A stretch of 32,000 nucleotides of DNA from Thermodesulfobacteriota bacterium (GTDB taxonomy: Bacteria > Desulfobacterota > WTBG01 > JAGOGO01): contig CP113000.1 in the NCBI GenBank assembly GCA_026625185.1, positions 2,115,622 to 2,147,621 of the forward strand, in the 5' to 3' direction. A program made the translations under genes and the position numbers. Below, piece after piece: positions 3,345 through 21,571 of this stretch. The notes under the pieces were generated by a model. That model was not told the DNA's origin. It saw only the letters and a program-made list of their open reading frames with translations, and searched no databases. Every line of letters starts with the position of its first letter. Position 1 is the stretch's first letter.

Positions 3345-4658
3345 TTAGGCGTTTAGATACCGGTTCGCGGTCATAAAATCCCGCTGCTGCCGTGTGCTTT
3401 GATATTCGATGGGTACAACCAATCCCCCTGCCGCGTGCACCGCCAGCGCCAGCGCCCAGAATCGGTCTGCATGCGAGTCGTCGCTTCTCTCCGCGTCAAA
3501 CCTGATATTACCGCTGGAGGTTGTGAGCTTTTTAACGCTGTGAAAATCGTCGCGCTGCTTGCGGTCAATCGGGATCCGGATTTGCCGGTCTTCAAATTTT
3601 TTACGCAGTGTATTGGCCAGATCGAGTTTTACCGGCCCGGTAAACAGCACGCCTTCCACCGTATATTCTCCGTATTTTTTCTTTGCGTCCTCGACCGGTT
3701 TTTCGCCCATTCCGGTCTGGTCAATACATACCCGCCGCGGATGATATTGTCGCACAATCCGGTCAAGCTCTTGATCCTGCTCTGAAAATTTTGCCCCTTT
3801 CATCTCGATTTTCTCCCGTGTCCACAAAACGTCCCCGACCATTTCCAGCACATAAAAAACCGTAAGGTCGCGCCGCCGGCCGATATCCATCCCCGCGTAA
3901 AATGGGCCGTTGCCGGACAGATCGGGATTGTTGGCGCTGTCATGCTCCACCGAATTAATGAGATCGTAGGTAAGAAAAGCGGTCGCTTCATCCAGAAATT
4001 TCAGCTCATATTCCTGCTGCCACAATTCCTCATCATCAATCGCGTCTTTCAGAAGGGCGATATCATGTGGACAGCCATCGTTTACCGCCTGATAGATATC
4101 AACACTATGTTTGGAGAAAATCGGATTATTCCAAACCTCGTAGGCTTTGTTCTGTTTGCCTTTGGGGGTGAAAGTAATCACCAGCCGGTAGCCGGTGCGT
4201 GAAATAATCGGAAAAACTGCGGCCCAGATTTCACGGCTGTTTTTGTGGACTGAAAACTCATCAAGATACACGTTGGCGGAATAACCGCGGGCAGTGTCCG
4301 GGTTGGCGGGCACCCCGATCACTCGTGATCCGTTGCGAAACCCAACCTCCAGCACCCGGTACTCATCGCGCTCGCCGTTTTCCGCGGTGTATCCATAGGT
4401 GTTTTCAATAAAATCCATTGTCATGCCGGTGATCTCGCCGTGGAGCTTGATTTTCTCCATTAATTCTTTAACCTGGCGCTCACCTGATGAGATGGTTACC
4501 CATTTATTGTGGTCTCGCTCCCGGCAGTCCAATACGATCTCCGCGGCAGAAGAAAACGATTTGCCGGTCTGCCGCGCCCACATCCCCTCCTTGAATCGGG
4601 ATGTGTCATTGATCCATTTTTTTTCGTAGGGGTAAAGCTGAATTGCCGGATCAGACAA
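3345..4658 (-). CDS. terL: terminase large subunit (Mu gp28-like)
   Basis: 437 aa. It has a Walker A-like WARQTGKSFS and a C-terminal nuclease-like region. It sits between the gp27-like gene and the portal, and its start overlaps the upstream stop by 8 nt. Confidence 0.85.
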   Translation of the reverse strand: MSDPAIQLYPYEKKWINDTSRFKEGMWARQTGKSFSSAAEIVLDCRERDHNKWVTISSGERQVKELMEKIKLHGEITGMTMDFIENTYGYTAENGERDEYRVLEVGFRNGSRVIGVPANPDTARGYSANVYLDEFSVHKNSREIWAAVFPIISRTGYRLVITFTPKGKQNKAYEVWNNPIFSKHSVDIYQAVNDGCPHDIALLKDAIDDEELWQQEYELKFLDEATAFLTYDLINSVEHDSANNPDLSGNGPFYAGMDIGRRRDLTVFYVLEMVGDVLWTREKIEMKGAKFSEQDQELDRIVRQYHPRRVCIDQTGMGEKPVEDAKKKYGEYTVEGVLFTGPVKLDLANTLRKKFEDRQIRIPIDRKQRDDFHSVKKLTTSSGNIRFDAERSDDSHADRFWALALAVHAAGGLVVPIEYQSTRQQRDFMTANRYLNA

Positions 4659-5413: not shown

Positions 5414-5805
5414 TCGGGTACCCTCTTTATTTTTTGATTTTCTATTCGCACCATCGGGCAGAACTGATTTTGTTCGATGGCCGCTGTCAGCTGGGTAAAT
5501 GCCTGCGTGTTCATCATCACAATATCCTTGAATTCCCCCAGATGCCCTTCGTAATCCTTGGTGAGCTTTTCGTTTTTATCCACGAGGGCGGCATTATTTT
5601 TGTACATCGTTACCATTGCCTCAAACTGTCTTTTTTGTGTCTCAAACTGTCTATCCTGCCGAGTAGAATTTATCGCCATCCACAGATAGGGTCCGCCGAG
5701 AATGAGTACGATGATGAACAAAACAATCGCGCCGAAATGCCAGCTACTCATCATTTCAAGCACTTTAAGCAATAATGTTACCGCTGTAATTTGCTCCGGT
5801 GTCAT
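5410..5805 (-). CDS. single-pass membrane protein of the lysis cassette (i-spanin- or holin-like)
   Basis: ATG 5805 forms an ATGA overlap with the endolysin stop. There is an N-terminal TM segment (HFGAIVLFIIVLILGGPYLWMAI) followed by a coiled-coil-like region. I prefer this start over the track start at 5901, which would lie inside the endolysin gene. Confidence 0.5.
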   Translation of the reverse strand: MTPEQITAVTLLLKVLEMMSSWHFGAIVLFIIVLILGGPYLWMAINSTRQDRQFETQKRQFEAMVTMYKNNAALVDKNEKLTKDYEGHLGEFKDIVMMNTQAFTQLTAAIEQNQFCPMVRIENQKIKRVPE

Positions 5806-6326
5806 GTTTTCTCCCCGATTAATTTTTGATAGGTCGCCCACACCTTGCGGACGTGGTTGATCATTTGCTTGTAATCTGGCCGCTTGCCTCTGACCAAGCA
5901 CGTTGGATCAGCCAGATACTGCGCTATTTCGTCCCAGGTCGGCGGTATTGCCGCCTTGTGGGTTCGTACTCGGTAAAGCCCGATCGCTTTTTTGATATAA
6001 CCCCGTCCTCCGTTATAAGCGGCCAGAGCGGCTTTGTAGCGCGTCTCCTGGTCGGTTAATTCACGCAGCCGATCAAACTGTATGGCAAAATAAGCGGTTC
6101 CAATCCGAATATTTGTGATGGGATCTTTGAGTCGTTCCGGGTTGACAATCCCCAGATCTTTCGCGGTCGCGGGCATAATCTGCATTATTCCGATCGCACC
6201 GCATGGGCTTACCGCATTGGGGTCTAAATGAGACTCCTCTACCCCCATCGCCTTAAACAATTGCCAGTCGTGGCCGAGGTCTTTGTCGCGCTGTTTAAAT
6301 AAGAGGTCGTATTTTGTGTTATTCAT
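5802..6326 (-). CDS. lytic transglycosylase (SLT domain) endolysin
   Basis: GVEESHLDPNAVSPCGAIGIMQIMPATAKDLG contains the catalytic E-S and GxMQ motifs of SLT/goose-type transglycosylases. Confidence 0.85.
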   Translation of the reverse strand: MNNTKYDLLFKQRDKDLGHDWQLFKAMGVEESHLDPNAVSPCGAIGIMQIMPATAKDLGIVNPERLKDPITNIRIGTAYFAIQFDRLRELTDQETRYKAALAAYNGGRGYIKKAIGLYRVRTHKAAIPPTWDEIAQYLADPTCLVRGKRPDYKQMINHVRKVWATYQKLIGEKT

Positions 6327-6343: not shown

Positions 6344-6390
6344 AACTCCCCCAAACCCCCTCTTTAAAAAAGAGGGGGTTTGGGGGAGTT
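6344..6390. repeat. 22-bp perfect inverted repeat hairpin with a 3-nt loop; member of the AACTCCCCC-hairpin repeat family
   Basis: aactcccccaaaccccctcttt (6344-6365) is the exact reverse complement of aaagagggggtttgggggagtt (6369-6390). Related units occur at 24834-24875 and 26184-26220. Confidence 0.85.
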
Positions 6391-6723
6391 TTCTTGGGGG
6401 TGGTTTTCGTGTAAACTTTTCGGTGCGGTAAGCCGCAGCCAATCTGCGATATCCTCGACCGCGTTAATAATCTCGTTAGCTGTGGGCGTTTTTTCACCCA
6501 TCCATGAGCGATATACCTCATCCGTATCCTCATTCACGATTGCGATCGTGGGTGTTGACATAAAACCGTGATATTGAAATTCAGCCAGCGCCCCGGGATC
6601 CTCATCAACGTTGAATAAAACCGGCAAAACCTCTGACGGCAGTTTTATATCCAGATCCGTGTATAACATCTTTGCCGGAGCACAGAGGGGGCAATTATTT
6701 TTGACGAACAAGTAAACTCGCAC
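6364..6723 (-). CDS. thioredoxin/glutaredoxin-fold protein
   Basis: CPLC (CxxC) redox motif near the N-terminus (VKNNCPLCAPAK), with a GTG start at 6723. The last ~8 codons are encoded by the right arm of the 6344-6390 hairpin. Confidence 0.65.
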   Translation of the reverse strand: MRVYLFVKNNCPLCAPAKMLYTDLDIKLPSEVLPVLFNVDEDPGALAEFQYHGFMSTPTIAIVNEDTDEVYRSWMGEKTPTANEIINAVEDIADWLRLTAPKSLHENHPQENSPKPPLF

Positions 6724-6750
6724 TTAAAATCCCCTTGATCGTGAAAAGCC

Positions 6751-6797
6751 CAAAAAACAAAAAGACCGATTATCCACCATTTCTGGTAGATAATCGG
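6751..6797 (-). terminator. rho-independent terminator of the low-GC moron
   Basis: 9-bp stem ccgattatc (6766-6774) / gataatcgg (6789-6797). On the minus strand it is followed by TCTTTTTGTTTTTTG (complement of 6751-6765). Confidence 0.6.
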
Positions 6798-6876
6798 CCC
6801 AGTTTTCCTGACACCGATAAGAAATTATATTAGTTGTTTATCTTCCTATTTTACTCTTGTGGTACTTTGCGGTTTT

Positions 6877-7842
6877 TTATTTTTTATTAGCGTTTGGTTC
6901 CGCAGTATTTGGTTGCTGTTTTTTAACTATTGGCTTTTGCTCTTCAATTTTAAATTTTGGCTCATTTGATTGCTGACTTTTATCACGACTTACGGCTATA
7001 CTAAAAAGCAAGATAAGAACTCCGATACAAGCTATTAACATAACCCAAAAAGGCCAGACCCTCGCATCCTTATTAACAATCATGTGCAAACCCAACATGA
7101 AGCAGATTAATACTAAACCTGCTCCAGAAATTGCAATTAATATATCTGTGACAGTGTTTAAACTTGCAGTAAATTGAAACATTGAAAAAATTAAAGCGAT
7201 TGCCGCAGTAAACAGACCTAAACGCTCTATGTTTCGAGTTTTCTCTTCATCAACCTTCTTTTCTATGTTGTCTATTTTTTCATCAACCTTTTTTTCTAAA
7301 AGTTGGTTTGCTGAAAACAAAAAATTCGATTTTGTATTAAAATCGTTTGAAACCACTCTCATATGCAAGAGAAAACCTATGTTGGTCGCTAAATTTCTCA
7401 GGCTCATCTCTGAGTTATATTCTTCTAAATAACTTAACGTCATGTATGCTACCTTTTGAATTTCTTCTTTTGTTTCCTTCTGAACTTCTACAAAAAAATA
7501 TAAAGCTTTTTCTATACAATTAGCAGCCTCTTTTAACGGCTCAGGAATGCCTTGGGGAGGGGCCGAATTTAAAAAACCATATGTAAGAAGATGTGCTTTT
7601 TGGGCCAATAAGAAATAGCATTTTGCTTCACAACCCAATCCATCTTCGATAGCTTGTAAAGCCTCTATTGGTGTATTATGGTAGAGTAAAATCCTTGCCT
7701 TGGCGGAATAAGCAAAAATATTTTTTTGCTGTGCTAAAATTTCATCAAGTTTTTCAATAGCAATAAGGGGGCTCTCTCGGTAACCTTGCCATGCCGATTG
7801 GAATAAAGTTTGGTTTTCTATGCTGAGATGATATAAGTCCAT
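6877..7842 (-). CDS. membrane protein: helical-repeat (TPR-like) N-domain, Lys/Glu coiled coil, three C-terminal TM helices
   Basis: 321 aa. Coiled coil EKKVDEKIDNIEKKVDEEKTRNIERL. TM segments LGLFTAAIALIFSMFQF, ILIAISGAGLVLICFMLGLHMIV and VWPFWVMLIACIGVLILLFSIAV. Visibly lower GC than the flanks. 1-nt overlap with the upstream gene. Confidence 0.7.
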   Translation of the reverse strand: MDLYHLSIENQTLFQSAWQGYRESPLIAIEKLDEILAQQKNIFAYSAKARILLYHNTPIEALQAIEDGLGCEAKCYFLLAQKAHLLTYGFLNSAPPQGIPEPLKEAANCIEKALYFFVEVQKETKEEIQKVAYMTLSYLEEYNSEMSLRNLATNIGFLLHMRVVSNDFNTKSNFLFSANQLLEKKVDEKIDNIEKKVDEEKTRNIERLGLFTAAIALIFSMFQFTASLNTVTDILIAISGAGLVLICFMLGLHMIVNKDARVWPFWVMLIACIGVLILLFSIAVSRDKSQQSNEPKFKIEEQKPIVKKQQPNTAEPNANKK

Positions 7843-8066
7843 TACCTTCCCTTTTTTAGAATCGGCGGAGTGCTTCCCGGAGAGAGGTTTTTGTTATCTA
7901 TTATCTCATTTAACTTAATCGTCTCCGCCTTTTTTATGGCTACAATTAAGCCCTTTTCAAAACTCAGTTCGATTTTCCCATAAAATTCTTCGATAATCAA
8001 GGGTAAAATTAATTTTTCAAGTTTTTCTATCTGGTATGTTGGAGACTTTTTATCCATACTACTCAT
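7842..8066 (-). CDS. small YezD-like (DUF2292-like) protein
   Basis: 74 aa. QIEKLEKLILPLIIEEFYGKIELSFEKGLIVAIKKAETIKL follows the DUF2292 pattern (G-x-V/I-x-L/I ... G-x-I/V-V-x-I/V-E/K-K-x-E). It is the first gene of the low-GC pair. Confidence 0.55.
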   Translation of the reverse strand: MSSMDKKSPTYQIEKLEKLILPLIIEEFYGKIELSFEKGLIVAIKKAETIKLNEIIDNKNLSPGSTPPILKKGR

Positions 8067-8132
8067 ACTTCACACCTTACATTTAACATTTCAGGAAATT
8101 GTCGCCGATTTTGTTAAAATACTTTTCACATT

Positions 8133-8408
8133 TCACGCCTTACGCTTCACGGTCTTTAAGTACGCAAACAACCGACATCGCTTCCCATCCCGGATAAAAA
8201 ACCACTGATGATCCTCATCTTCCTGTGCGATTAAGATACCGTGATAACGCATTGCCTTCCGCAGGTCATCCCGGGTCGGCTCCCAATATCCGCAGGGAAT
8301 GACCTTTTGCCGGAGCATCGCCTGGTAATCCGCATACGCGGCCCGCCCGCCAACGATTACGAACGCCGCAATAACAAACCATATAAAATATTTTTTAAAA
8401 TTTATCAT
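8133..8408 (-). CDS. hypothetical membrane-anchored phage protein
   Basis: I prefer ATG 8408 (MINFKKYFIWFVIAAFVIVGG, an N-terminal TM segment). The track GTG 8432 would translate the heptamer array. Confidence 0.5.
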   Translation of the reverse strand: MINFKKYFIWFVIAAFVIVGGRAAYADYQAMLRQKVIPCGYWEPTRDDLRKAMRYHGILIAQEDEDHQWFFIRDGKRCRLFAYLKTVKRKA

Positions 8409-8756: not shown

Positions 8757-9266
8757 TTAACCCTTTACCCTTAACCCTTGTGCTTCGCGTAGCTCATATT
8801 CAAACTTCTCCTTCGGCTTCTTATCCCCGCCGATCGCGATAATTTTCTCAATCGGCCATTTTTCTACCATCTCCCGGTCAACGCTTTTGGCGATTTTAAT
8901 CGCCTCATTCCAACCCAGGCTTTCTATTGCTTCCACCGCGTTCTTCGGGAGCGACAGCCTCGCCTCGGTCGTATGTATCACTATGCCGTGGGGCAGGGTG
9001 ACCTTTTCGGCTTTATTGAACAGTTCGGCCTTGTTTTTTTTCAGGCAGGTGATAAGCGTTTTCTCATCCATTGCCAGCGTTTCCTGGAGAGTCTCTATTT
9101 TTGCCTGATATTGTTTTCTGATCTCAGCAATTTGTTTTTCAACGTCCGCCTCGATGCGGGCTATACGTTTGACCAGATCACCGATATAGTAGAGGTGATC
9201 ATCTATCTCATCATGCAATACTTTTTGCTCATTGCTCATTGCTCTTAGCTCTTTAGGCAGCGTCAT
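8757..9266 (-). CDS. gam: Mu Gam-like host-nuclease inhibitor
   Basis: 169 aa. N-terminal coiled coil (IGDLVKRIARIEADVEKQIAEIRKQYQAKIETLQ), then a VTLPHGIVIHTTEARLSLP segment, which is the Gam family pattern. The position matches the Mu early region. An alternative start exists at 9239. Confidence 0.7.
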   Translation of the reverse strand: MTLPKELRAMSNEQKVLHDEIDDHLYYIGDLVKRIARIEADVEKQIAEIRKQYQAKIETLQETLAMDEKTLITCLKKNKAELFNKAEKVTLPHGIVIHTTEARLSLPKNAVEAIESLGWNEAIKIAKSVDREMVEKWPIEKIIAIGGDKKPKEKFEYELREAQGLRVKG

Positions 9267-9777: not shown

Positions 9778-10212
9778 TCACATTCCTTGCTGAATAAGTC
9801 TTTTTGCTTCATTCTTTTCGCCTTCGCTGATTTTCATTATCACCGCGATGAGTCGCTCCAATGTGACCACACTGCGGCACCAGTCGAGCCGCTCGACCCC
9901 GCATATTTTTTTAACCAATCCGGCAAGCCGATTTTCTCCGTTCTGTATTTTTGTGGTTTCATCCAGTACCCGTTGTCGTAAAGCCTTTATCTGCGCGTTC
10001 GGCTTAGATTGCCATCCCAAGAATTTAAAAAATTTGATTAGCTTTTCGAGGTCTTCAAATCTCAGATCTGCCGCGGTTGTAACGCTGAACCCTTCAAGGA
10101 TCGCGTCATACTCGTGCTCTTTAAGCCCCAGCTCTTTTTTCGCGATGTGCACCTTCGCCAGCATCGCCCGCCGAATCCTCGGATTTTGTATTGTTTTTTT
10201 CGACTTTTTCAT
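9778..10212 (-). CDS. gemA: GemA / Mu gp16-like regulatory protein (DUF1018)
   Basis: RRAMLAKVHIAKKELGLKEHEYDAILEGFSVTTAADL matches the gp16/GemA N-terminal signature. Confidence 0.8.
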   Translation of the reverse strand: MKKSKKTIQNPRIRRAMLAKVHIAKKELGLKEHEYDAILEGFSVTTAADLRFEDLEKLIKFFKFLGWQSKPNAQIKALRQRVLDETTKIQNGENRLAGLVKKICGVERLDWCRSVVTLERLIAVIMKISEGEKNEAKRLIQQGM

Positions 10213-10260: not shown

Positions 10261-10713
10261 TATTTCCATCCGATATTTATCCCGGCTCGTTACAGCGTAA
10301 ACATGTTCGGTGCCCATGCCGGTTTTGCGTCTTCCAGCCCTGTTTAAATATCCGCTCCGATACAGGCGGGTGATAATTTTGGTCACGTAGCTTTTCTCGG
10401 GCGCGCCGGAAATGCGTTGAATATCCGATACCGTAAACCGGCTGATTGACACGTAGATGGCCTTTAAAATTTTTTGTCGGATGCCGTCCTGGTATCCCGG
10501 TTTCCATTTGTGGTTGTAACGATAAATGTCCGCATCTGGGTCGGTGATAACCTCACCGCGCTCGATAAAATCTTTGAGCGCGGCATACACTTTGATGCGA
10601 TCCGGCCCCACCGGGATATCAAGCCCTGTGTAAATCGACTCCCTTGTAAAAAATGGGCGTTTTTGTTCTCTCATCCACGCGCGCATTTGTTTTGCCAGTC
10701 CGGTTTTTTTCAT
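10255..10713 (-). CDS. winged-helix DNA-binding phage early protein
   Basis: 152 aa. FTVSDIQRISGAPEKSYVTKIITRLYRSGYLNRAG has a MarR-like wHTH pattern. ATGA-type overlap with the MuB-like gene (10710-10713). Confidence 0.5.
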   Translation of the reverse strand: MKKTGLAKQMRAWMREQKRPFFTRESIYTGLDIPVGPDRIKVYAALKDFIERGEVITDPDADIYRYNHKWKPGYQDGIRQKILKAIYVSISRFTVSDIQRISGAPEKSYVTKIITRLYRSGYLNRAGRRKTGMGTEHVYAVTSRDKYRMEIL

Positions 10714-11399
10714 TTTGTGCCCGTTATTTCTTTTACCAGGTCAAGGCTCACCTCGGTTAATCCGCTCGCCCGCATCGCCCGCTCAATCGTGATTGACGCG
10801 GTCAGCACTGGTCTCCAGTCACCGTTTGAGTGCTTATGGAGCGCGGTTACAACCTCCGGAGCCGGTTTGATCTCCAGGGCTTTTCGCAAAAAAAGCACAA
10901 TGTCCGGCTGGGTAAGCGGCGAGAATCCCATCCTCCTCCGTATTCGGGAGGAGAGACGCCGACGGCTCTCGATTTTTCCTTTCATTCCTTCTTCTCCGAT
11001 CAGCAGCACCGGGCAGGAGTAGCGTTCATTGAGGTTGCGCAGCATCTCCAAAACCTGCATGGCGAGCAAATCCGCTTCGTCAATGATGATCAGCCGCCGG
11101 TCTTTTGCCATCTCGTCGCCGATAATGGTGAGGCAGGTCTCGGACCGGCCCGGGCGCACCGTGCAAAGCTCAAAAGTGATCTCCCGCAGGAGCATCGGGG
11201 CGCTCCGGATATTGAGCGGAGGCAGATAAATCGCGGTTCCCCTCGCGGCGTATTGTTTCGCGGCCTCGGATTTACCTCTGCCTGCCGGGCCGGTGACCAT
11301 CGCGAGCGACGGCCCGATCAGGCTTTGCGGGTCTTCGAGTTCCGCGCAGATGTCGTTAAATTTGGTAATATTTTGCGTCTGGATAAATTCATTTTTCAT
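10710..11399 (-). CDS. MuB-like AAA+ ATPase (transposition target-DNA activator)
   Basis: Walker A VTGPAGRGKSEAAK, Walker B LIIIDEADLL. It lies immediately downstream of the transposase. Confidence 0.85.
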   Translation of the reverse strand: MKNEFIQTQNITKFNDICAELEDPQSLIGPSLAMVTGPAGRGKSEAAKQYAARGTAIYLPPLNIRSAPMLLREITFELCTVRPGRSETCLTIIGDEMAKDRRLIIIDEADLLAMQVLEMLRNLNERYSCPVLLIGEEGMKGKIESRRRLSSRIRRRMGFSPLTQPDIVLFLRKALEIKPAPEVVTALHKHSNGDWRPVLTASITIERAMRASGLTEVSLDLVKEITGTK

Positions 11400-11409
11400 T
11401 GCTCCTCCT

Positions 11410-11451
11410 TGCTGTTTGCTCTCTTTGCTCTTAGCTCTTTGCTCTTTGCGC
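11410..11451 (-). repeat. tandem heptamer array (GCAAAGA on the sense strand, ~6 units) between the transposase and the MuB-like gene
   Basis: Plus strand: tgctgtt tgctctc tttgctc ttagctc tttgctc tttgcgc. AAGGAGG plus ATG 11399 follows on the sense strand. Confidence 0.8.
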
Positions 11452-13673
11452 TACAACCCCATCTCCCTTGCTACCTCCCAGTACTCCCGCTGATCCGCAG
11501 GCATTGCTGCCTCGTGCATCTCCATCCACTCTCTGTCCTCCGCGGTCAGTTCCCCGCCTGCTTTTTGATATTTGAAACACCACTCATGTCTTTCCAATTC
11601 CGACAAAAAGTATTTCGGTCTCGGAGGCAGCGGTTTTTTGCGGATTTGCATCTCCGCGGCCTGTGTTGTTTCTTCGAGCGCGGCAACTTCCGCCTCCATC
11701 TCATCAGGCGTGCGCTGCCGATAGAGTTCGGTCTGCGCGGCAACCTTTTTGCGCCGTTCATCACCGACTATGGCCGCGGCTTTTTCAAGCGCCGGGACGT
11801 TGGAGTATTTTCTAAAATCCGGTACCCGTGAGGTAAGCTCGTGGTATTTTTGAGAGAATTCTTTGCGCCGTTTTGCTTTTTCTTCGATTTTTCGCTCCGC
11901 TAATTCATGGTCTTTCATTGAGGAGTACTCGACCAGTTCGGCGCTGGAAACAAATTCTCCCTGATAAAAAACCAGGATGTCGTCCGGATCCACCGGGTCG
12001 TATCGGAGATCAACCGAATTTCCGTGAAACGGAATTAACGCGTCACTTTCATATTGTTTTCCCTGGAAGGTGATCCGGCCCCGGTCAACTTTGCGGCTCG
12101 CGCGGGGGAGAAAGAGTATGTTAATCGCGTCGTCTGATAATTTTACCGGCCGCCAGCTCTCGTGCAGATAGCACGCTTCAAGGCATTGGATCGGAGTCGC
12201 GCTTTTTGGTTTCGGTTGACCACGCCATTCTTTGAGCACGCCTCGATGCGTCTTTTCCCGGTTGTAATAATCGGCGGCCAGGTACATGGCCAGGACAAAC
12301 TCTCTGTAGGTAGTGAGCTTGCCGGATCTGGCCAGGCTCTCGATTTCTTTCTGGTCAATATCCTGATGCTCGCTCGGAGCGGTGAGTCGTTTGACATTTC
12401 CGGGCAGGAGGAAGCGGTTCCGCATGATGCCTTCTAAAACATTGTTTGTGCCCTCGATCATTTTCGCTTTCGCGTTTTTTACGATCGCCCTCCGGTGTTC
12501 GCCGGGCATGACAAACGCGGGCATGATCTCCTCCGGGTCCTGGCCGTTAAGATCGATGGGGTAATCAATTTCTCTCTCGACCGAAAGCCCCAGCGCTCGC
12601 ATGTCCTTCATAATACCTATGATGTAGCGGGAGTTTTCCGGTTTGCCGTTATCGGTATAGATATTTTTAAAAGCGCCGAAACACCGGATGCCGATGTGAA
12701 GCGCCATACCCATGAGCGCGGCGTCATAGCGCCGGTCTATGGCGATGCCGTAAATAATGCGCGTGCGCAAGTCCTGCCACATGTAGCATTCCGGTCTGAA
12801 TACCTCGCCGGTCTCCTCATCAACCACCCAAAAATCGAAGCGATGCTGGTCGCCCACCAGGATTTCAAAAGGTTCGAGGTCGGAGTAATCGCGAAGGATC
12901 GGTGGAAGCGTGTTGTCAAGCGCTCTTAGGCCTCCTTTCTGCAGGGCTAAGAGCTGGGGGTTAAGCCTTTTTTTAAGCCACCAGAGGGCTGATTCGTATG
13001 AACCGGTCTGCCATGATCGATTGTGCGCCTCTATTTTGAGGCACTTAAAGAGAGAGTCTTTGGATATCTTGCGGTGCGACCGCTTTAATACCATGCCCAG
13101 CCAGAAGTCAACCGCTTCTGGCGTCCAGACTTTTGGGGTTTTTCGGGTAGATTTCCGGTGAGTTAATCCTACGAGGCCCTGGGAATTATATTTCTTTAAC
13201 TTCTTATATATAGTTCTCCAGTCAACCTCGTGGCGTAGAGCCACGTTTTCTATCCAGGCGCGTTTTTTCCAGCCTGCGGGAGCGCGTTCGGCTTCCTGGA
13301 TAATGCGCACCCAGCGGGTAAATTTTTTATTCTTGAGGTCCTTTTCCGAGATGGAGTGTTCGGTGGTTTGAATCCGTGTGTCCCGGATGCCGGCAAGGCT
13401 CGTGTCCGGAAAATCGGTAAGCTTTCTTAACGCTATCAGCGCCGCTTCCGGCGCCAGCACGGGAAGCATCTCGGCTGAGGTCGGGGTTGATTTTTCGGCA
13501 ATTTTTTTCTGGATATCGGAAGGGAGGGAGGAGAGGAGATAATGCTTTGTCTTTCCGCCGTTGCCGGCTTCTGTTTTGTGCGGCCAGGCTTCTTTTTGTG
13601 CGCGCCGCATAATCGTGGTTTTGTTAAGTCCGGTGGTCTCCGCAAGCTTTTTGGCTGTATATGCAGATTTCAT
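11451..13673 (-). CDS. MuA-like DDE transposase
   Basis: 740 aa. N-terminal HTH (AKKLAETTGLNKTTIMRRAQKE). Candidate DDE triad contexts are VGDQHRFDFWVVD, IYTDNGKPENS and AKAKMIEGT. The long C-terminal region is typical of Mu-type transposases. Confidence 0.9.
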   Translation of the reverse strand: MKSAYTAKKLAETTGLNKTTIMRRAQKEAWPHKTEAGNGGKTKHYLLSSLPSDIQKKIAEKSTPTSAEMLPVLAPEAALIALRKLTDFPDTSLAGIRDTRIQTTEHSISEKDLKNKKFTRWVRIIQEAERAPAGWKKRAWIENVALRHEVDWRTIYKKLKKYNSQGLVGLTHRKSTRKTPKVWTPEAVDFWLGMVLKRSHRKISKDSLFKCLKIEAHNRSWQTGSYESALWWLKKRLNPQLLALQKGGLRALDNTLPPILRDYSDLEPFEILVGDQHRFDFWVVDEETGEVFRPECYMWQDLRTRIIYGIAIDRRYDAALMGMALHIGIRCFGAFKNIYTDNGKPENSRYIIGIMKDMRALGLSVEREIDYPIDLNGQDPEEIMPAFVMPGEHRRAIVKNAKAKMIEGTNNVLEGIMRNRFLLPGNVKRLTAPSEHQDIDQKEIESLARSGKLTTYREFVLAMYLAADYYNREKTHRGVLKEWRGQPKPKSATPIQCLEACYLHESWRPVKLSDDAINILFLPRASRKVDRGRITFQGKQYESDALIPFHGNSVDLRYDPVDPDDILVFYQGEFVSSAELVEYSSMKDHELAERKIEEKAKRRKEFSQKYHELTSRVPDFRKYSNVPALEKAAAIVGDERRKKVAAQTELYRQRTPDEMEAEVAALEETTQAAEMQIRKKPLPPRPKYFLSELERHEWCFKYQKAGGELTAEDREWMEMHEAAMPADQREYWEVAREMGL

Positions 13674-15557: not shown

Positions 15558-16490
15558 GTGGTTAATAAAAAAAGGCTTTCTCCCATTTATTTGGATAAAA
15601 TAGATGCTTGTGAGGGGTCAAACATCGTCTATCTTCGGCCAAGTCGGAACCGTCGTCGTATAGTTTTTGGTTGGTATGGAGGAAAATTTAGTCATCTTGA
15701 GTGGCTACTGCCCTTACTACCACAATGTCATCACTATTGCGAGCCTTTCGCTGGGTCTGCTGCTGTTCTGTTGAACCGTGAACCTTCACCGGTTGAGACA
15801 TATAATGACATTGACGGAGACGTAGTTAACTTCTTTCGCGTACTGCGAGACCGCCGTGATGAAATCGTTAGGGCAATTGCTCTTACCCCCTTTTCCCGCG
15901 AGGAATACCATCTTGCTATTTACGGAAATACTAAAGCAATAACCGATGTAGAGCGAGCTCGACGCTTCTATATACGAGCCCGTCAAACACGAACGGGGCT
16001 TGCTCAAACTGCTTCGCTCGGTCGCTGGGCAAACTGCAAAAATACGAGCCGTGCCGGAATGTCTGGTGTGGTTTCCCGCTGGTTGGGTGGGGTTGATGCG
16101 CTGAATTTTATTGCGCAGCGTCTAATACGAGTCCAAATCGAAAACCGGCCAGCTGAGGATATGATTAGGCTTTACGATGCTAATAACACCTTGTTTTATT
16201 GCGATCCGCCCTATCTGCATGCTACACGTGGGGACTCAAAGGCTTATGGTTTTGAAATGGATGAGAGCCATCACCGAGAACTTGCCAAACTGCTAAATGA
16301 ATGCCGAGGAAAGGTGGCTCTGTCTGGTTACAACCACCCGCTTATGGATGACCTATACCCAAAGAAAAAATGGTTTAAAACAATGGGACCAGAAAAAACT
16401 ATTCATTCAACCAAGGGCACGAGATGTGAACTGCTCTGGACAAACTACGATCCCAACAAGGGAAGACAAAAAAAATTATTTGATAAATAA
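15558..16490 (+). CDS. Dam-family (D12 class) N6-adenine DNA methyltransferase
   Basis: FGWYGGK, the AdoMet motif EPFAGSAAVLLN and the catalytic FYCDPPYLHATRG (DPPY) appear in alpha-class order. GTG start with GGAGAG 5 nt upstream. Confidence 0.9.
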   Translation: MVNKKRLSPIYLDKIDACEGSNIVYLRPSRNRRRIVFGWYGGKFSHLEWLLPLLPQCHHYCEPFAGSAAVLLNREPSPVETYNDIDGDVVNFFRVLRDRRDEIVRAIALTPFSREEYHLAIYGNTKAITDVERARRFYIRARQTRTGLAQTASLGRWANCKNTSRAGMSGVVSRWLGGVDALNFIAQRLIRVQIENRPAEDMIRLYDANNTLFYCDPPYLHATRGDSKAYGFEMDESHHRELAKLLNECRGKVALSGYNHPLMDDLYPKKKWFKTMGPEKTIHSTKGTRCELLWTNYDPNKGRQKKLFDK

Positions 16491-16492
16491 AA

Positions 16493-17620
16493 ATGAAACC
16501 TACCCCAGAACAAATATTGGAGGAAATTTATAAGCGTGCCGAAAATTCGCGCAAAAAGTCTTTCATAACCGATGGGGTAATAAAAAAACAAATTGACTAT
16601 GTTTGCCATTGCACGAGTAACCGCGCCGGTGTTCGATTGTTAATGGCTTGTCTTTTAGGAAAATTAGATAATCCGAAAGTTGATCCCCGAATGCCCTATA
16701 CGGAGATCGGAACTAATGACTGTTTTTCGGGGCGCACCTATGATGAACGCTATATAACACACTTTATTAACGTGCACCGCTTGCCCTGCAATCCGACGAC
16801 CGCCTTTCTAACGCCTACCTTGCGTAATATAGACCGTCCTCTTAAAACTGATACTGAGCTTGTGGGAAGACCGCGAGAACTTTACAAAACTACTCTCCAA
16901 TTATTGGAGGAAGTTGCCAAGAACCGTATTAGCGCCGACATTGTTTTTATTGAAGTTGTGCGTATATTACTAAATGCCCGCGACGAAAAGTTAAACCGCA
17001 TAGCTTCGCTTCTCAAATCCATTAAACGTGGGGAGGGAGCCTTGCCGCTCTCGTCTGAGACAATCGTTACACTAATCGAGCAACATCTGGCTTGTAAAAA
17101 ATCAAGCCGTCTTCCGGTATTGGTAGTAGCTGCTGCGTATCAGGTTGCCGGGAAACGAATAGGGGAGCGCGTTTTGCCGCTCAACTCTCATAATGCCGCT
17201 GACTTACAAACTGGCTCTATCGGTGACGTGGAGGTTTGTCTTGTTGGAGATGATAACGTCGTTACCGCTTACGAAATGAAGATGAAAAGGGTAACGATAG
17301 ATGATATAGACGGAGCAATAAATAAAATCGTTAAAGCATCACAAAGGATTCATAATTATATCTTTATAACTACCGAAAAGATTGACCCAGAAACAGCCGA
17401 ATATGCTTTAAAATTTTATGAGGAAACAGGGGGAATTGAGATCGTCATACTTGATTGTATCGGCTTTTTAAGACATTTTTTGCATCTATTCCACCGGCTT
17501 CGTACAGATTATTTAAATACTTATCAGACTCTTGTGTTGGAGGAGCCTGATTCGGCAGTTAGTCAGTCTCTAAAAGAGGCTTTTCTTGCTTTAAGGCAGT
17601 CTGCTGAGAGTGGTGAATAA
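16493..17620 (+). CDS. putative type II restriction endonuclease (PD-(D/E)xK)
   Basis: It starts 2 nt after the methyltransferase stop. The core SHNAADLQTGSIGD245VEVCLVGDDNVVTAYE261MK263 gives D-x15-ExK. Confidence 0.6.
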   Translation: MKPTPEQILEEIYKRAENSRKKSFITDGVIKKQIDYVCHCTSNRAGVRLLMACLLGKLDNPKVDPRMPYTEIGTNDCFSGRTYDERYITHFINVHRLPCNPTTAFLTPTLRNIDRPLKTDTELVGRPRELYKTTLQLLEEVAKNRISADIVFIEVVRILLNARDEKLNRIASLLKSIKRGEGALPLSSETIVTLIEQHLACKKSSRLPVLVVAAAYQVAGKRIGERVLPLNSHNAADLQTGSIGDVEVCLVGDDNVVTAYEMKMKRVTIDDIDGAINKIVKASQRIHNYIFITTEKIDPETAEYALKFYEETGGIEIVILDCIGFLRHFLHLFHRLRTDYLNTYQTLVLEEPDSAVSQSLKEAFLALRQSAESGE

Positions 17621-17651
17621 TCCTGAAACATTTCATATAAAATTGGCAATT

Positions 17652-17686
17652 GCAAAACAAAAAGGTAAAAGGCCTTTTTGTTTTGC
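17652..17686 (+). terminator. hairpin terminator after the R-M pair
   Basis: gcaaaacaaaaagg (17652-17665) and cctttttgttttgc (17673-17686) form a 14-bp perfect stem with a U-rich 3' arm. Confidence 0.55.
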
Positions 17687-17750
17687 GAAGGGGCAACAAT
17701 CTATCAGTGTCCTTTACAAATCAATATAACCATTGTTGGACACGTAGACA

Positions 17751-18305
17751 ATGAAGACTAAAAAGGGAAAGAAGGACGTTCTCGATCTCAAGGGTGACAT
17801 GCGAGTGGTGAAGAGACTTCTTCAACTATATGACGCATGTTTGAAAAATGCGGAGGCTCTCTTATCCGAAGCAGATTTACTCTTCAAGAAAGGCCACCAC
17901 CCAAGGGCGTTTACTCTTGCCCACACTGGCTGGGAAGAGACTGGAAAGTCCCAACTCGTGGCCGACTTCTTGAACCAAATGGTTTCCCCAGTGGAGTTCG
18001 AGGCCGCCTTCAAGGATCACAAACTGAAATCTGCATATAACTGGAGACGGTTTGTTTGGAACTTTGCCAACATCGCTGACTCCACAATTGAATACGACCG
18101 TAACAAAACGACAGCGGGTCTGCAAAAACGTCACTCATCACTTTACGTTGGGAAAAACACCGATTTTAGCCCTATTGCACCTGAGAGTCAGGTTAGTAAA
18201 GAGGAAGCACATACGGTCATCGAAGCTCTACGGAACGAGATTAAGAAGATAAACTTGTACGATGCAATCACTGAACGAGTCGGTTCAAAGTCTTTTCTGA
18301 AGTGA
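17751..18305 (+). CDS. AbiV-like abortive infection protein
   Basis: LYDACLKNAEALLSEADLLFKKGHHPRAFTLAHTGWEETGKSQLV follows the AbiV family N-terminal helix pattern (NAxxLLxDAxxLxxxGxYxxAxxLxxxxxEExGK), as I recall it. Confidence 0.6.
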   Translation: MKTKKGKKDVLDLKGDMRVVKRLLQLYDACLKNAEALLSEADLLFKKGHHPRAFTLAHTGWEETGKSQLVADFLNQMVSPVEFEAAFKDHKLKSAYNWRRFVWNFANIADSTIEYDRNKTTAGLQKRHSSLYVGKNTDFSPIAPESQVSKEEAHTVIEALRNEIKKINLYDAITERVGSKSFLK

Positions 18306-20236: not shown

Positions 20237-20303
20237 TGTGATAATTTCTATAGTTAAAAGAAAAAAGTTGGGGAATAATTTCCGCAATTCTTAGGTCTGG
20301 GGT

Positions 20304-20489
20304 TTATTTTTTGTCCAATCCAGTCCCTTCGTTTTCTTTTTGTTGATTTAAAGGATTTACCTCGTTGGAAATATTATTATTTTGAGATAATATAAGACAT
20401 CCAGGAATGGAAAAACACTGAACTGCAAAATCTCTCTCTGCCTCCAACCAGGCCGTTTTATAGTCATCGGGATATAATCTGGTGTACAT
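20304..20489 (-). CDS. hypothetical 61-aa protein, operon partner of the Ntn hydrolase
   Basis: Strong RBS AAGGAGGG 6-7 nt before ATG 20489. It starts 19 nt after the upstream stop. Confidence 0.55.
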   Translation of the reverse strand: MYTRLYPDDYKTAWLEAERDFAVQCFSIPGCLILSQNNNISNEVNPLNQQKENEGTGLDKK

Positions 20490-20508
20490 AAAAAGACCCT
20501 CCTTTTAC

Positions 20509-21180
20509 CTAAATTTCAATAGTTTTTGTAATGTTACCCACACCAGGAGCTACTTCGCTACGTTTTTTTGCCTTTTCGATAAAATCTTTTACCGCTTCTT
20601 TACTAAGTGATTTTTTATAATCGGCTTCGATAAGTGAATATAAAGCATGAGGTCCACCGGACCCGATGGCAACAAAACCGATCGGATCATGGCATATCAT
20701 ATCACCGGGGTTTATGACTGTGTAAATATGACAAGCAGAATCGTCTTTTCCCGCCAGAATAAATTCAACTCCAGCGTTATATTTTATAAATGCTTGGTCA
20801 ATAATTTGAACAAGGCTTGGAAAGAGTTTTTGCTGTAAAGTTAAATAAGAATTTAAATCCAGTCCCCGTGGTTCTAATTCATTTCTGATGATGCGAAGTT
20901 TCCGAACCAACTGGTATGATTCTCTTAATATATCTGCTATCCGCTGTGTTGATTGAATGTTTTCAATGTTAACGCGCTGTTTTGTTATCTTTATAATTTC
21001 ATTAGCAAATAATACATCTCCAGCAATTAAAACCCAGGCGTTATCAGTAATCTTTACGATTTTATCTATTTCTTGATTTTCAAATTCATACCCAATCGGG
21101 AAATGAGCCGTAATCATTTGATCTGATGTAAGAATACACCCATTACCATTATCACATAAAGCAGCTATACATACGGTCAT
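20509..21180 (-). CDS. proteasome-type (T1 family, HslV/Anbu/BPH-like) Ntn hydrolase
   Basis: MTVCIAAL places Thr directly after the initiator Met. This is followed by LTSDQM, DKIVKITDN, LIAGDVLFA and VAIGSGGPHALYSL, in the order of the proteasome beta-subunit motifs. RBS AGGGAGGA. Confidence 0.65.
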   Translation of the reverse strand: MTVCIAALCDNGNGCILTSDQMITAHFPIGYEFENQEIDKIVKITDNAWVLIAGDVLFANEIIKITKQRVNIENIQSTQRIADILRESYQLVRKLRIIRNELEPRGLDLNSYLTLQQKLFPSLVQIIDQAFIKYNAGVEFILAGKDDSACHIYTVINPGDMICHDPIGFVAIGSGGPHALYSLIEADYKKSLSKEAVKDFIEKAKKRSEVAPGVGNITKTIEI

Positions 21181-21361
21181 TTTTATTCCTCCCTTGATTT
21201 TTTCTTTTTTCTTAAAATCTAATGTAATAATAAGTTCGTTTTTTTTAAAAAATCAATCTTTTTTTATAATATTATGGTTTTATAGAATGCAATTTTCACA
21301 CCATTAAAATTAAAATTATTCAACCACTGGTGTTTTTGGGTAAAAAATTCACCTTTAAAAT

Positions 21362-21382
21362 TTTTCAAACTACGTGCGGAAA
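21362..21382 (+). repeat. direct repeat copy 2 (ttttcaaactacgtgcggaaa)
   Basis: See 20216-20236. It is followed by ...gatttcattaCA at 21405-21416, which resembles a Mu-type TG/CA terminus read in reverse. Confidence 0.35.
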
Positions 21383-21571
21383 ATCTCTCTTGAATTTTGT
21401 CGCCGATTTCATTACAAAAAAACAGGGGTTAGCGGGTAAGAGTGTGGCGACAAAATTTTCTCCAAATTTCATCTAACTTCTTATTATCCCGGCATTTACC
21501 GGCATATCCCACCTAATCCCGTTATTCTCCTATTATGTTACATTCCTCACACGTTTATAAAGGAGGAAAGA

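Follow-up and report, generated by a model that had tools for sequence, protein, structure and literature searches.

Do two overlapping low-GC genes in the early region of a Mu-like prophage form a defence pair that is inherited as a unit, or do they mark a place where the phage exchanges accessory genes? We addressed this question in a stretch of 32,000 nucleotides (nt), hereafter the window, from Thermodesulfobacteriota bacterium (assembly GCA_026625185.1, contig CP113000.1, positions 2,115,622 to 2,147,621), in which two minus-strand genes encoding proteins of 74 and 321 amino acids (aa) lie exactly where an initial annotation had placed them, with an overlap of 1 nt (Table 1). That annotation had read the pair as a moron with its own terminator and, on the model of a soluble sensor with a membrane effector, as a candidate exclusion or defence pair. 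We favour, with moderate confidence, another account: where the early operon of this rare Mu-like prophage ends on its 3' side, there is a slot for accessory genes, filled here by a membrane protein derived from a host, and no two-component defence system is involved. The small gene belongs to the phage as a resident and the large gene is swapped-in cargo; there is no co-inherited sensor-plus-effector pair.

Composition of the gene pair

A GC profile of the window bore out the by-eye impression that the pair is more AT-rich than the neighbouring phage genes, since GC content is 0.33-0.38 over positions 6750-8250 against 0.45-0.53 on either side, and the two genes have values of 0.35 and 0.34 as compared with 0.44-0.56 for the other genes of the phage. 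The drop extends to synonymous sites, GC at third codon positions (GC3) being 0.30 in the large gene and 0.39 in the small gene versus 0.49-0.68 in 15 other phage genes. In most related loci the relatives of the large gene are themselves 1-10 GC points under their surroundings, thus the family itself accounts for part of the drop; in the window it amounts to 13-16 points, exceeding that range. A composition unlike that of the surrounding phage genes is what would be looked for in a moron, and the pair has it.

Contents of the site in related phages

IMG/VR was scanned with the small protein, both flanking proteins, the two conserved DNA segments that border the slot (the 5' and 3' handles) and the alternative cargo described below; these scans returned just two contigs, from one sample. 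L001 is a 17-kb viral contig from a sister phage of the window prophage, and L004, from the same sample as L001, is a third related phage. Amino acid identities between the window phage and L001 are 88-93% for MuA (90%), MuB (93%), GemA and the portal versus 68% for Gam, 65% for a 99-aa protein, 64% for the Grx-like protein, 60% for gp27 and 51% for the large terminase (TerL), which indicates that the genomes are mosaic. The phages also differ in their lysins, the window encoding an SLT type and L001 a Peptidase_M15_3 type.

We place the slot between the last early genes and a conserved early terminator, where it would lie ahead of the Grx-like gene and the lysis cassette. In the window it contains the small gene followed by the large gene, whose product joins tetratricopeptide repeat (TPR)-like helices to three transmembrane (TM) helices (TPR-3TM), and then the terminator. 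In L001 the small gene is followed by a gene for an unrelated 221-aa protein that combines a dCTP-deaminase (DCD) fold with a TM segment (DCD-TM), and then by the same terminator. In L004 a GemA-like gene, a Zn-ribbon protein and a low-GC 72-aa orphan are found, and there is neither the small gene nor either handle. The content of the site is therefore replaced or absent in close relatives, as in a moron. The alignment with related Mu-like prophages suggested in the initial annotation thus cut both ways: the content of the site differs, so the large gene is cargo and not a core gene, and the small gene proved to be a resident shared with L001, which goes against a pair.

The L001 cargo (6561-7226 of that contig) has a dCTP-deaminase/dUTPase fold (PF22769; PDB 9ln0, E 1e-22), to which an extra helical segment and a C-terminal TM anchor are added. 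Neither this cargo nor the small protein encoded next to it matched PADLOC, no other copy of the cargo was found in IMG/VR, and a literature search on membrane-bound dCTP deaminases gave nothing usable. The low-GC orphan open reading frame (ORF) of L004 (3930-4148) has no Pfam match.

Breakpoints and repeats

The 5' handle is 100% identical in the window and L001, whereas the 99-aa gene adjoining it is just 70% identical at the nucleotide level; its predicted RNA fold is unremarkable (z +0.5). In a DNA alignment of the two phages homology runs from this handle to codon ~52 of the small gene, where it breaks, and restarts ~40 nt ahead of the terminator hairpin. In L001 a 35-nt segment is a direct repeat of positions 6502-6536 of the small gene (26/35 matches, shuffle p 0.002), so that the L001 cargo is framed by copies of small-gene sequence; the window retains only its distal half, at the right junction (Table 1).

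Each handle also contains one copy of a bipartite inverted repeat, ATCGGC-N5-TTTCCTGA (8091-8109 on the minus strand and 6793-6811 on the plus strand), which is found nowhere else in the 32 kb at <=2 mismatches and whose right copy coincides in part with the terminator's 5' arm. Some 29 inverted pairs of similar quality occur by chance in this AT-rich region, thus the significance of the repeat is a posteriori and marginal, and we regard it as unproven as a real signal. We considered, and rejected, a more recent origin for the handles than for the backbone, the genome being mosaic and the synonymous divergence of the small gene matching that of MuA, MuB and the portal gene.

The small gene is resident in the phage

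The conserved part of the small gene (Table 1) was compared with its counterpart in L001 (6391-6546), to which it is 88% identical in amino acids and 86% in nucleotides. Over this shared part the nonsynonymous divergence (dN) is 0.079 and the synonymous divergence (dS) 0.62, and the resulting dN/dS of 0.13 marks it as a real gene under purifying selection. Its dS lies among the values for MuA, MuB and the portal gene (0.37-0.86), and such a divergence, equal to that of well-conserved backbone genes, indicates that the small gene is resident and was not imported with the cargo. One orthologue, P0003 on L001, was detected among 5.8 billion proteins in a word-indexed search, and no homologue among 50,697 phage genomes.

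Similarity between the two small genes stops at codon ~52, after which the proteins end in different tails, that of the window phage being AAAAAGGGAAGGTAATG and that of L001, just about 6-9 residues long, GGGAGGGCACGAACATGA. Each tail is what results when the ribosome-binding site of the cargo gene behind it is translated in frame, and includes that gene's Shine-Dalgarno sequence (AAGGGAAGGTAATG in the window, GGGAGGGCACGAACATGA in L001); the tails are thus most simply explained as cargo leader translated in frame. The small gene and the gene behind it share a single base in the window (TAATG) and 4 nt in L001 (ATGA).

The initial annotation had assigned the small protein to the DUF2292/YezD pattern. 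DUF2292 (PF10055) is the sole Pfam family reported for both orthologues, and there is likeness in size and in the succession of a helix and the pattern YG-x-[IV]-x-[LI]…G-x-[IV]-[IV]-x-I-x…E-x-I; however, the scores (12.9 bits, E 0.083 for the window protein; 12.7 bits, E 0.097 for P0003) lie below the gathering threshold of 22, and no match was obtained in NCBIfam at E<=1 or in a PDB sequence search. An AlphaFold2 (AF2) model of the small protein, built on a 2-sequence alignment and unreliable, has a single helix at residues 9-59 (pLDDT 70, pTM 0.32) and a disordered tail. On its sequence the DUF2292 resemblance is a lead, not membership; DUF2292 is without known function and literature on it yielded nothing usable.

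Terminator, promoter and expression

The stem-loop and T-run reported at the end of the pair are indeed present, as a 17-bp stem with a 4-nt loop and a T5GT6 tail. The hairpin has a folding energy of -31.6 kcal/mol in the window, -30.7 in L001 and -35.9 in L004, with z values against shuffles of -8.4, -6.2 and -5.4, respectively. L004, in which the pair is missing, carries an 18-bp hairpin followed by T5GT5 directly before its Grx-like gene, the stem sequence being another and the shape and position the same, and this equivalent identifies the structure as the end-of-early-region terminator of the phage backbone. What survives of the moron described in the initial annotation is, then, the foreign cargo that differs among the window, L001 and L004; what does not is the terminator of its own, since the hairpin is common to L001 and has its equivalent in L004. 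Just before the terminator of L004 there is also a C-rich hairpin flanked by a 28-nt direct repeat (4192-4219 / 4269-4296).

No sigma-70-type promoter passed our scan upstream of the small gene. Four matches were obtained in total against 5.8 expected, the sole one on the minus strand (8020-7993) falling within the small gene, and by eye a TTAACA-18-TGAAAT arrangement without the -10 A2 can be seen in the 5' handle. No such promoter having been found, expression in the lysogen is doubtful. The cargo leader and its ribosome-binding site appear to be fused in frame onto the 3' end of the small gene, which makes transcription with the early operon and coupled translation probable; the large gene would thus be co-transcribed with that operon and translated by coupling through the 1-nt overlap.

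The same arrangement could suggest a two-gene toxin-antitoxin (TA)-like or abortive infection (Abi) module, in which the small protein neutralises or regulates a membrane protein that kills or depolarises the cell when a phage attacks, and the 29-nt handle serves as operator and promoter for expression in the lysogen. As in type II TA systems, a small gene lies upstream of and overlaps the larger one, by 1 nt in the window and 4 nt in L001, in antitoxin-first order and with translational coupling. The N-terminal part of the small protein is kept while its tail changes with the downstream gene, the 29 nt upstream are perfectly conserved, the inverted repeat occurs in both handles, and both cargos are membrane-anchored. 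Yet a single small domain would then have two unrelated proteins under its control, the tails that differ are explained more simply as ribosome-binding sites in frame, no promoter passed the scan and the inverted repeat is no better than the chance-level pairs. We return to this module with the relatives of the large protein, which bear on it as well.

For comparison, temperate phages offer the lambdoid morons, the hotspots of P2 and P4, which have conserved phage genes on either side, and, in Mu, a semi-essential early region. Like the morons and hotspots of temperate phages, our site holds a compositionally foreign gene at a fixed position, with differing content and conserved sequence on both sides. 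Unlike them, it has no own promoter that we could find and its terminator belongs to the backbone; its left boundary lies inside a resident small gene, to which the cargo is translationally coupled; and its cargos match no known defence, anti-defence or virulence family.

The large protein joins a TPR domain to a conserved membrane module

An AF2 model of the large protein was built on 28 sequences and is confident overall (pLDDT 87). Together with the family profile it agrees with the layout initially described, that is, TPR-like helices, a KE-rich coil, three TM helices and a K/Q-rich tail. A continuous 82-residue helix (145-226) comprises the KE-rich repeat and then TM1, and the TM helices are backed by hydropathy windows, AF2 helices and family conservation; the C-terminal tails are variable among relatives. 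Within the stalk a tandem duplication (7246-7265 / 7279-7298, 33-nt spacing, 95% identical) encodes EKKVDE…EKKVDE.

The family profile matches TPR chains and engineered TPR proteins in the PDB (E 3e-17), and with Foldseek against PDB and BFVD the TPR part alone was matched, by MamA, consensus TPR (CTPR) and SycD/PcrH (prob 1.0, E 3e-3 to 3e-2). Each main Pfam TPR model is matched by 3-5 of 34 family members; taken by itself, the window protein has no Pfam TPR match at E<=1, the repeat being recognised by the family profile and the fold of the model. The N-terminal 140 residues resemble MamA and SycD/PcrH (class II type III secretion chaperones) in fold, with a target-normalised TM-score of 0.4-0.7, but those proteins are soluble, whereas here the TPR domain is fused via a helix of ~80 residues to a conserved 3TM module.

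Conservation in the family peaks at the junction of stalk and TM1 (E-[RK]-x-R-x-I-E-x-L-G-x-F-x-A), where the family alignment has the invariant columns of a juxtamembrane motif, E200-x2-R203-x2-E206-x-L-G209; F211, A213, S220, G240, H253 and R261 are conserved along with it, S220, H253 and R261 being polar residues within the membrane. The phage copy retains 13/13 invariant family residues plus H253 and R261, and judging from these residues is probably functional. With its conservation peak inside the membrane, the 3TM module is more likely to do work of its own than to serve as a mere anchor. Distant relatives carry the same C-terminal module on other N-terminal domains (long TPR arrays or a different helical domain). 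The 3TM module had no counterpart in PDB, BFVD, Pfam or NCBIfam, a profile restricted to the C-terminal module found no relative in PDB or Pfam, and no consistent Pfam or PDB family emerged for it.

These features invite a bolder reading, that stalk-3TM modules are a new family of ligand-gated membrane effectors, with the TPR or other N-terminal domains as sensors, and that a landing pad formed by the 3' end of the resident small gene and the early terminator swaps membrane-anchored TPR-3TM and DCD-TM effectors against rival phages or host defences, which we hold to be unlikely. A cytoplasmic domain, a long stalk helix and few TM helices are also the layout of CorA-like proteins, of the 2TM effectors of CBASS and of Pycsar PycTM. 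The large protein differs from these in that it lacks a GMN motif and has neither a partner for nucleotide binding or signalling nor cyclase or CRISPR genes nearby. Against PADLOC-DB v2 the window proteins gave only PycTM (E 9e-4, in the TM region) and PDC-M33B (E 0.016); CorA was matched in 2/34 relatives (E 1.6e-4) and a 2TM effector in 1/34, and across the 34 relatives no model was matched by more than two members. The PycTM, CorA and 2TM matches were set aside as noise of TM composition, being inconsistent in the family and confined to hydrophobic helices. No PADLOC model is convincing, and a function in exclusion or defence is neither shown nor excluded.

Relatives of the large protein

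A fast word-indexed search found only the large protein itself, and an exhaustive HMMER scan of 1.84 billion representatives detected 52 relatives (clusters) at E<=1e-3, the best of them 41% identical over the full length. The family is without a Pfam, NCBIfam, PHROG or PADLOC model, generic TPR matches aside, and neither IMG/VR nor a set of 50,697 phage genomes yielded a relative. On a long branch, the window protein groups as sister to a chromosomal clade linked to slt (41-42% identical to it). Apparently, the 321-aa gene was captured from a small bacterial family that has no name and whose genes are solitary.

At four loci (L008, L014, L022, L023) the family member comes straight after the gene for a chromosomal Slt of ~640 aa, and at L022 and L006 genes for an HI0933-like flavoprotein and for a peptidyl-prolyl isomerase (PPIase) come next behind it; L006, a fifth close relative, has only these downstream neighbours in common. 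Other relatives adjoin prfB, DUF72/radical SAM, DUF2059 or DUF4328 genes. A minority occurs in TA or restriction-modification (R-M) neighbourhoods (L007, L018 and L009). In L007 (683-2909) the gene begins 7 nt after a gene with HTH_3 and Peptidase_M78 domains, itself behind a HigB-like toxin, in a neighbourhood that also has a YhcG nuclease and MazE; in L018 (11-3149) and L009 (40-3708) it follows a DNA methylase.

No small upstream partner or homologue of the 74-aa protein was present in any of 16 metagenome loci or of the three loci fetched for P0004 and P0016, thus the family is not one regularly accompanied by a cognate antitoxin. The sensor-plus-effector pair of the initial annotation fails on both genes, the small one being resident together with its L001 counterpart and the relatives of the large one lacking a small partner; the TPR domain and the membrane module are already in one chain. 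For the TA-like or Abi module introduced above, the relatives in TA and R-M islands (HigB, HTH-M78, YhcG and MazE in L007, DNA methylase in L018 and L009) and the weak PycTM match are points in favour. Still, the relatives are solitary at every locus examined, hence not intrinsically toxic genes that need an antitoxin, and PycTM is matched in 1/34 members, by TM helices only; we judge this module improbable.

The link to slt raises another possibility, that the cargo is copied from a host membrane protein acting alongside the lytic transglycosylase or the peptidoglycan machinery, and that the phage tunes wall turnover or the timing of lysis with it. TPR membrane proteins commonly scaffold envelope machines. 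The closest relatives, at 41-50% identity, are those immediately downstream of chromosomal slt, and in the prophage the gene stands just upstream of a lysis cassette whose lysin is of the SLT type here and of the Peptidase_M15_3 type in L001, which is without this cargo. However, a strong terminator stands between the gene and the lysis cassette, the phage SLT is just 33% identical to the catalytic domain of host Slt, the neighbours of distant family members are unrelated, and the TPR domain is predicted to lie in the cytoplasm, whereas Slt is periplasmic. We consider such a role quite unlikely. A joint capture of slt and cargo was likewise rejected on the 33% identity of the lysin.

Could the gene instead be a neutral passenger, a host fragment caught by illegitimate recombination at a recombination-prone site and without a role in the phage? 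The cargo occurs in a single phage lineage, its composition is strongly foreign and unameliorated, its branch is long relative to the sister clade and the genome is highly mosaic, all of which would fit. But the ORF is intact and of full family length, it retains every invariant residue of the family together with H253 and R261, it has a good Shine-Dalgarno sequence and a coupled start, and an identical protein occurs on at least 4-5 contigs from different assemblies, which leaves this explanation with very little probability.

A model of the slot and its cargo

In the accessory-slot reading that we prefer, the N-terminal domain of 3-4 TPR repeats would be cytoplasmic and would bind a protein or peptide ligand. 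The stalk helix of ~60 residues is predicted to run unbroken into the first of the three TM helices, and stalks may bundle into an oligomer. The conserved 3TM module would act in the inner membrane, either through a leak of ions or small molecules or by engaging another envelope protein. The phage would most likely use the protein for an early-expressed accessory function at the membrane, whether exclusion of competitors or modulation of the envelope; a membrane-level role of this kind is our guess.

Several observations weigh against this reading. Oligomerisation, topology and membrane activity are inferred only from a monomer model and from conservation. The small gene is found in two phages only and this cargo in one, so that the slot is known from three genomes. 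The promoter scan came back empty upstream of the small gene. The closest relatives have a stable, housekeeping-like synteny (slt - gene - HI0933-like - PPIase), which argues for a cellular envelope role over anti-phage activity, and the TPR domain in the core family is conserved, not diversifying.

The prophage and its surroundings

The Mu-like prophage occupies the first ~14.4 kb of the window, on the minus strand, with the genes for MuA, MuB, Gam and GemA in a single operon followed by lysis genes and Mu-type head genes; further downstream lie gp27, the large terminase and a Mu-type portal. The early-region context initially proposed holds, Gam and GemA being present in the window and gp27, portal/F and terminase being annotated on L002, an identical copy of the window phage. 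A Mu transposase_C and a MuB-type ATPase (AAA_22) are annotated on L001. The portal is ~35% identical to portals of B3/D3112-like phages and of the Stenotrophomonas Mu-like phage phiSHP3, and megablast of phage records found no related record, which together point to a poorly sampled phage lineage. The coordinates of all features are collected in Table 1.

Table 1. Positions of the slot, its genes and protein parts, and the neighbouring features in the window.
Feature	Position	Strand	Remark
29-nt 5' handle (TAACAAAATCGGCGACAATTTCCTGAAAT)	8088-8116	minus	intergenic, upstream of small gene
Small gene, 74 aa	8066-7842	minus	
Small gene, conserved part	7902-8066	minus	MSS + codons 1-52 counted from MDKK
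Small gene, cargo-specific tail (…NEIIDNKNLSPGSTPPILKKGR, then stop)	7842-7901	minus	contains Shine-Dalgarno of large gene
Large gene, 321 aa	7842-6877	minus	
TPR-like helical repeat domain, residues 8-142	7417-7821	minus	AF2 helices mostly pLDDT >90
Stalk helix, residues 145-207	7222-7410	minus	KE-rich 33-nt tandem duplication + juxtamembrane motif
Three TM helices, residues 208-292	6967-7221	minus	~208-226, 231-256, 263-292
K/Q-rich disordered tail and stop, residues 293-321	6877-6966	minus	pLDDT 44-57
Right junction start (AAATAGGAAGATAAACAACTAA)	6830-6851	minus	degenerate copy of small-gene codons ~45-52
30-nt 3' handle	6788-6817	minus	100% identical in L001
Intrinsic terminator	6753-6800	minus	stem 6800-6763, T-run to 6753
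Grx-like gene	6364-6723	minus	3' of slot region
SLT lysin	5802-6326	minus	after Grx-like gene
Gam	8757-9266	minus	E 3.6e-20
GemA	9778-10212	minus	E 5.7e-9
MuB	10710-11399	minus	
Transposase (MuA)	11451-13673	minus	
D12-class N6-adenine methyltransferase	15558-16490	plus	beside prophage regulatory end
SacI-like restriction endonuclease	16493-17620	plus	beside prophage regulatory end
AbiV/HEPN protein	17751-18305	plus	beside prophage regulatory end

A perfect 20-bp G/C-rich palindrome, CCCCCAAACCCCCTCTT…AAGAGGGGGTTTGGGGG (6345-6389), overlaps a 3' extension of the Grx-like ORF and resembles a bidirectional terminator, and a comparable C-rich hairpin is found in L004 at ~4228-4262. Directly by the regulatory end of the prophage there is a small defence island on the plus strand (15558-18305), formed by the last three genes of the table. 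A second low-GC patch (20250-21500, GC 0.30-0.37) includes a minus-strand gene (20509-21180, GC3 0.26) whose product is proteasome-subunit-like (PF00227, E 9e-11). No Rfam families or tRNAs were found in the window.

Significance

A phage accessory slot is a well-known kind of feature, and to a specialist the finding will be unsurprising; the new elements are a landing pad that lies within a small gene, a membrane-protein family that had no name and, as alternative cargo, the DCD-TM protein. New defence, anti-defence and host-manipulation genes are repeatedly found in the accessory slots of temperate phages, and here a cargo site is precisely delimited in a poorly sampled Mu-like lineage, with two testable cargos, an undescribed TPR-stalk-3TM family and a membrane-anchored protein of dCTP-deaminase fold, that merit a bench test. 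If the 3TM module is an active membrane effector, it would be a new domain in the catalogue of effector domains; if it is not, the locus would be a clean case of a phage capturing a host envelope gene.

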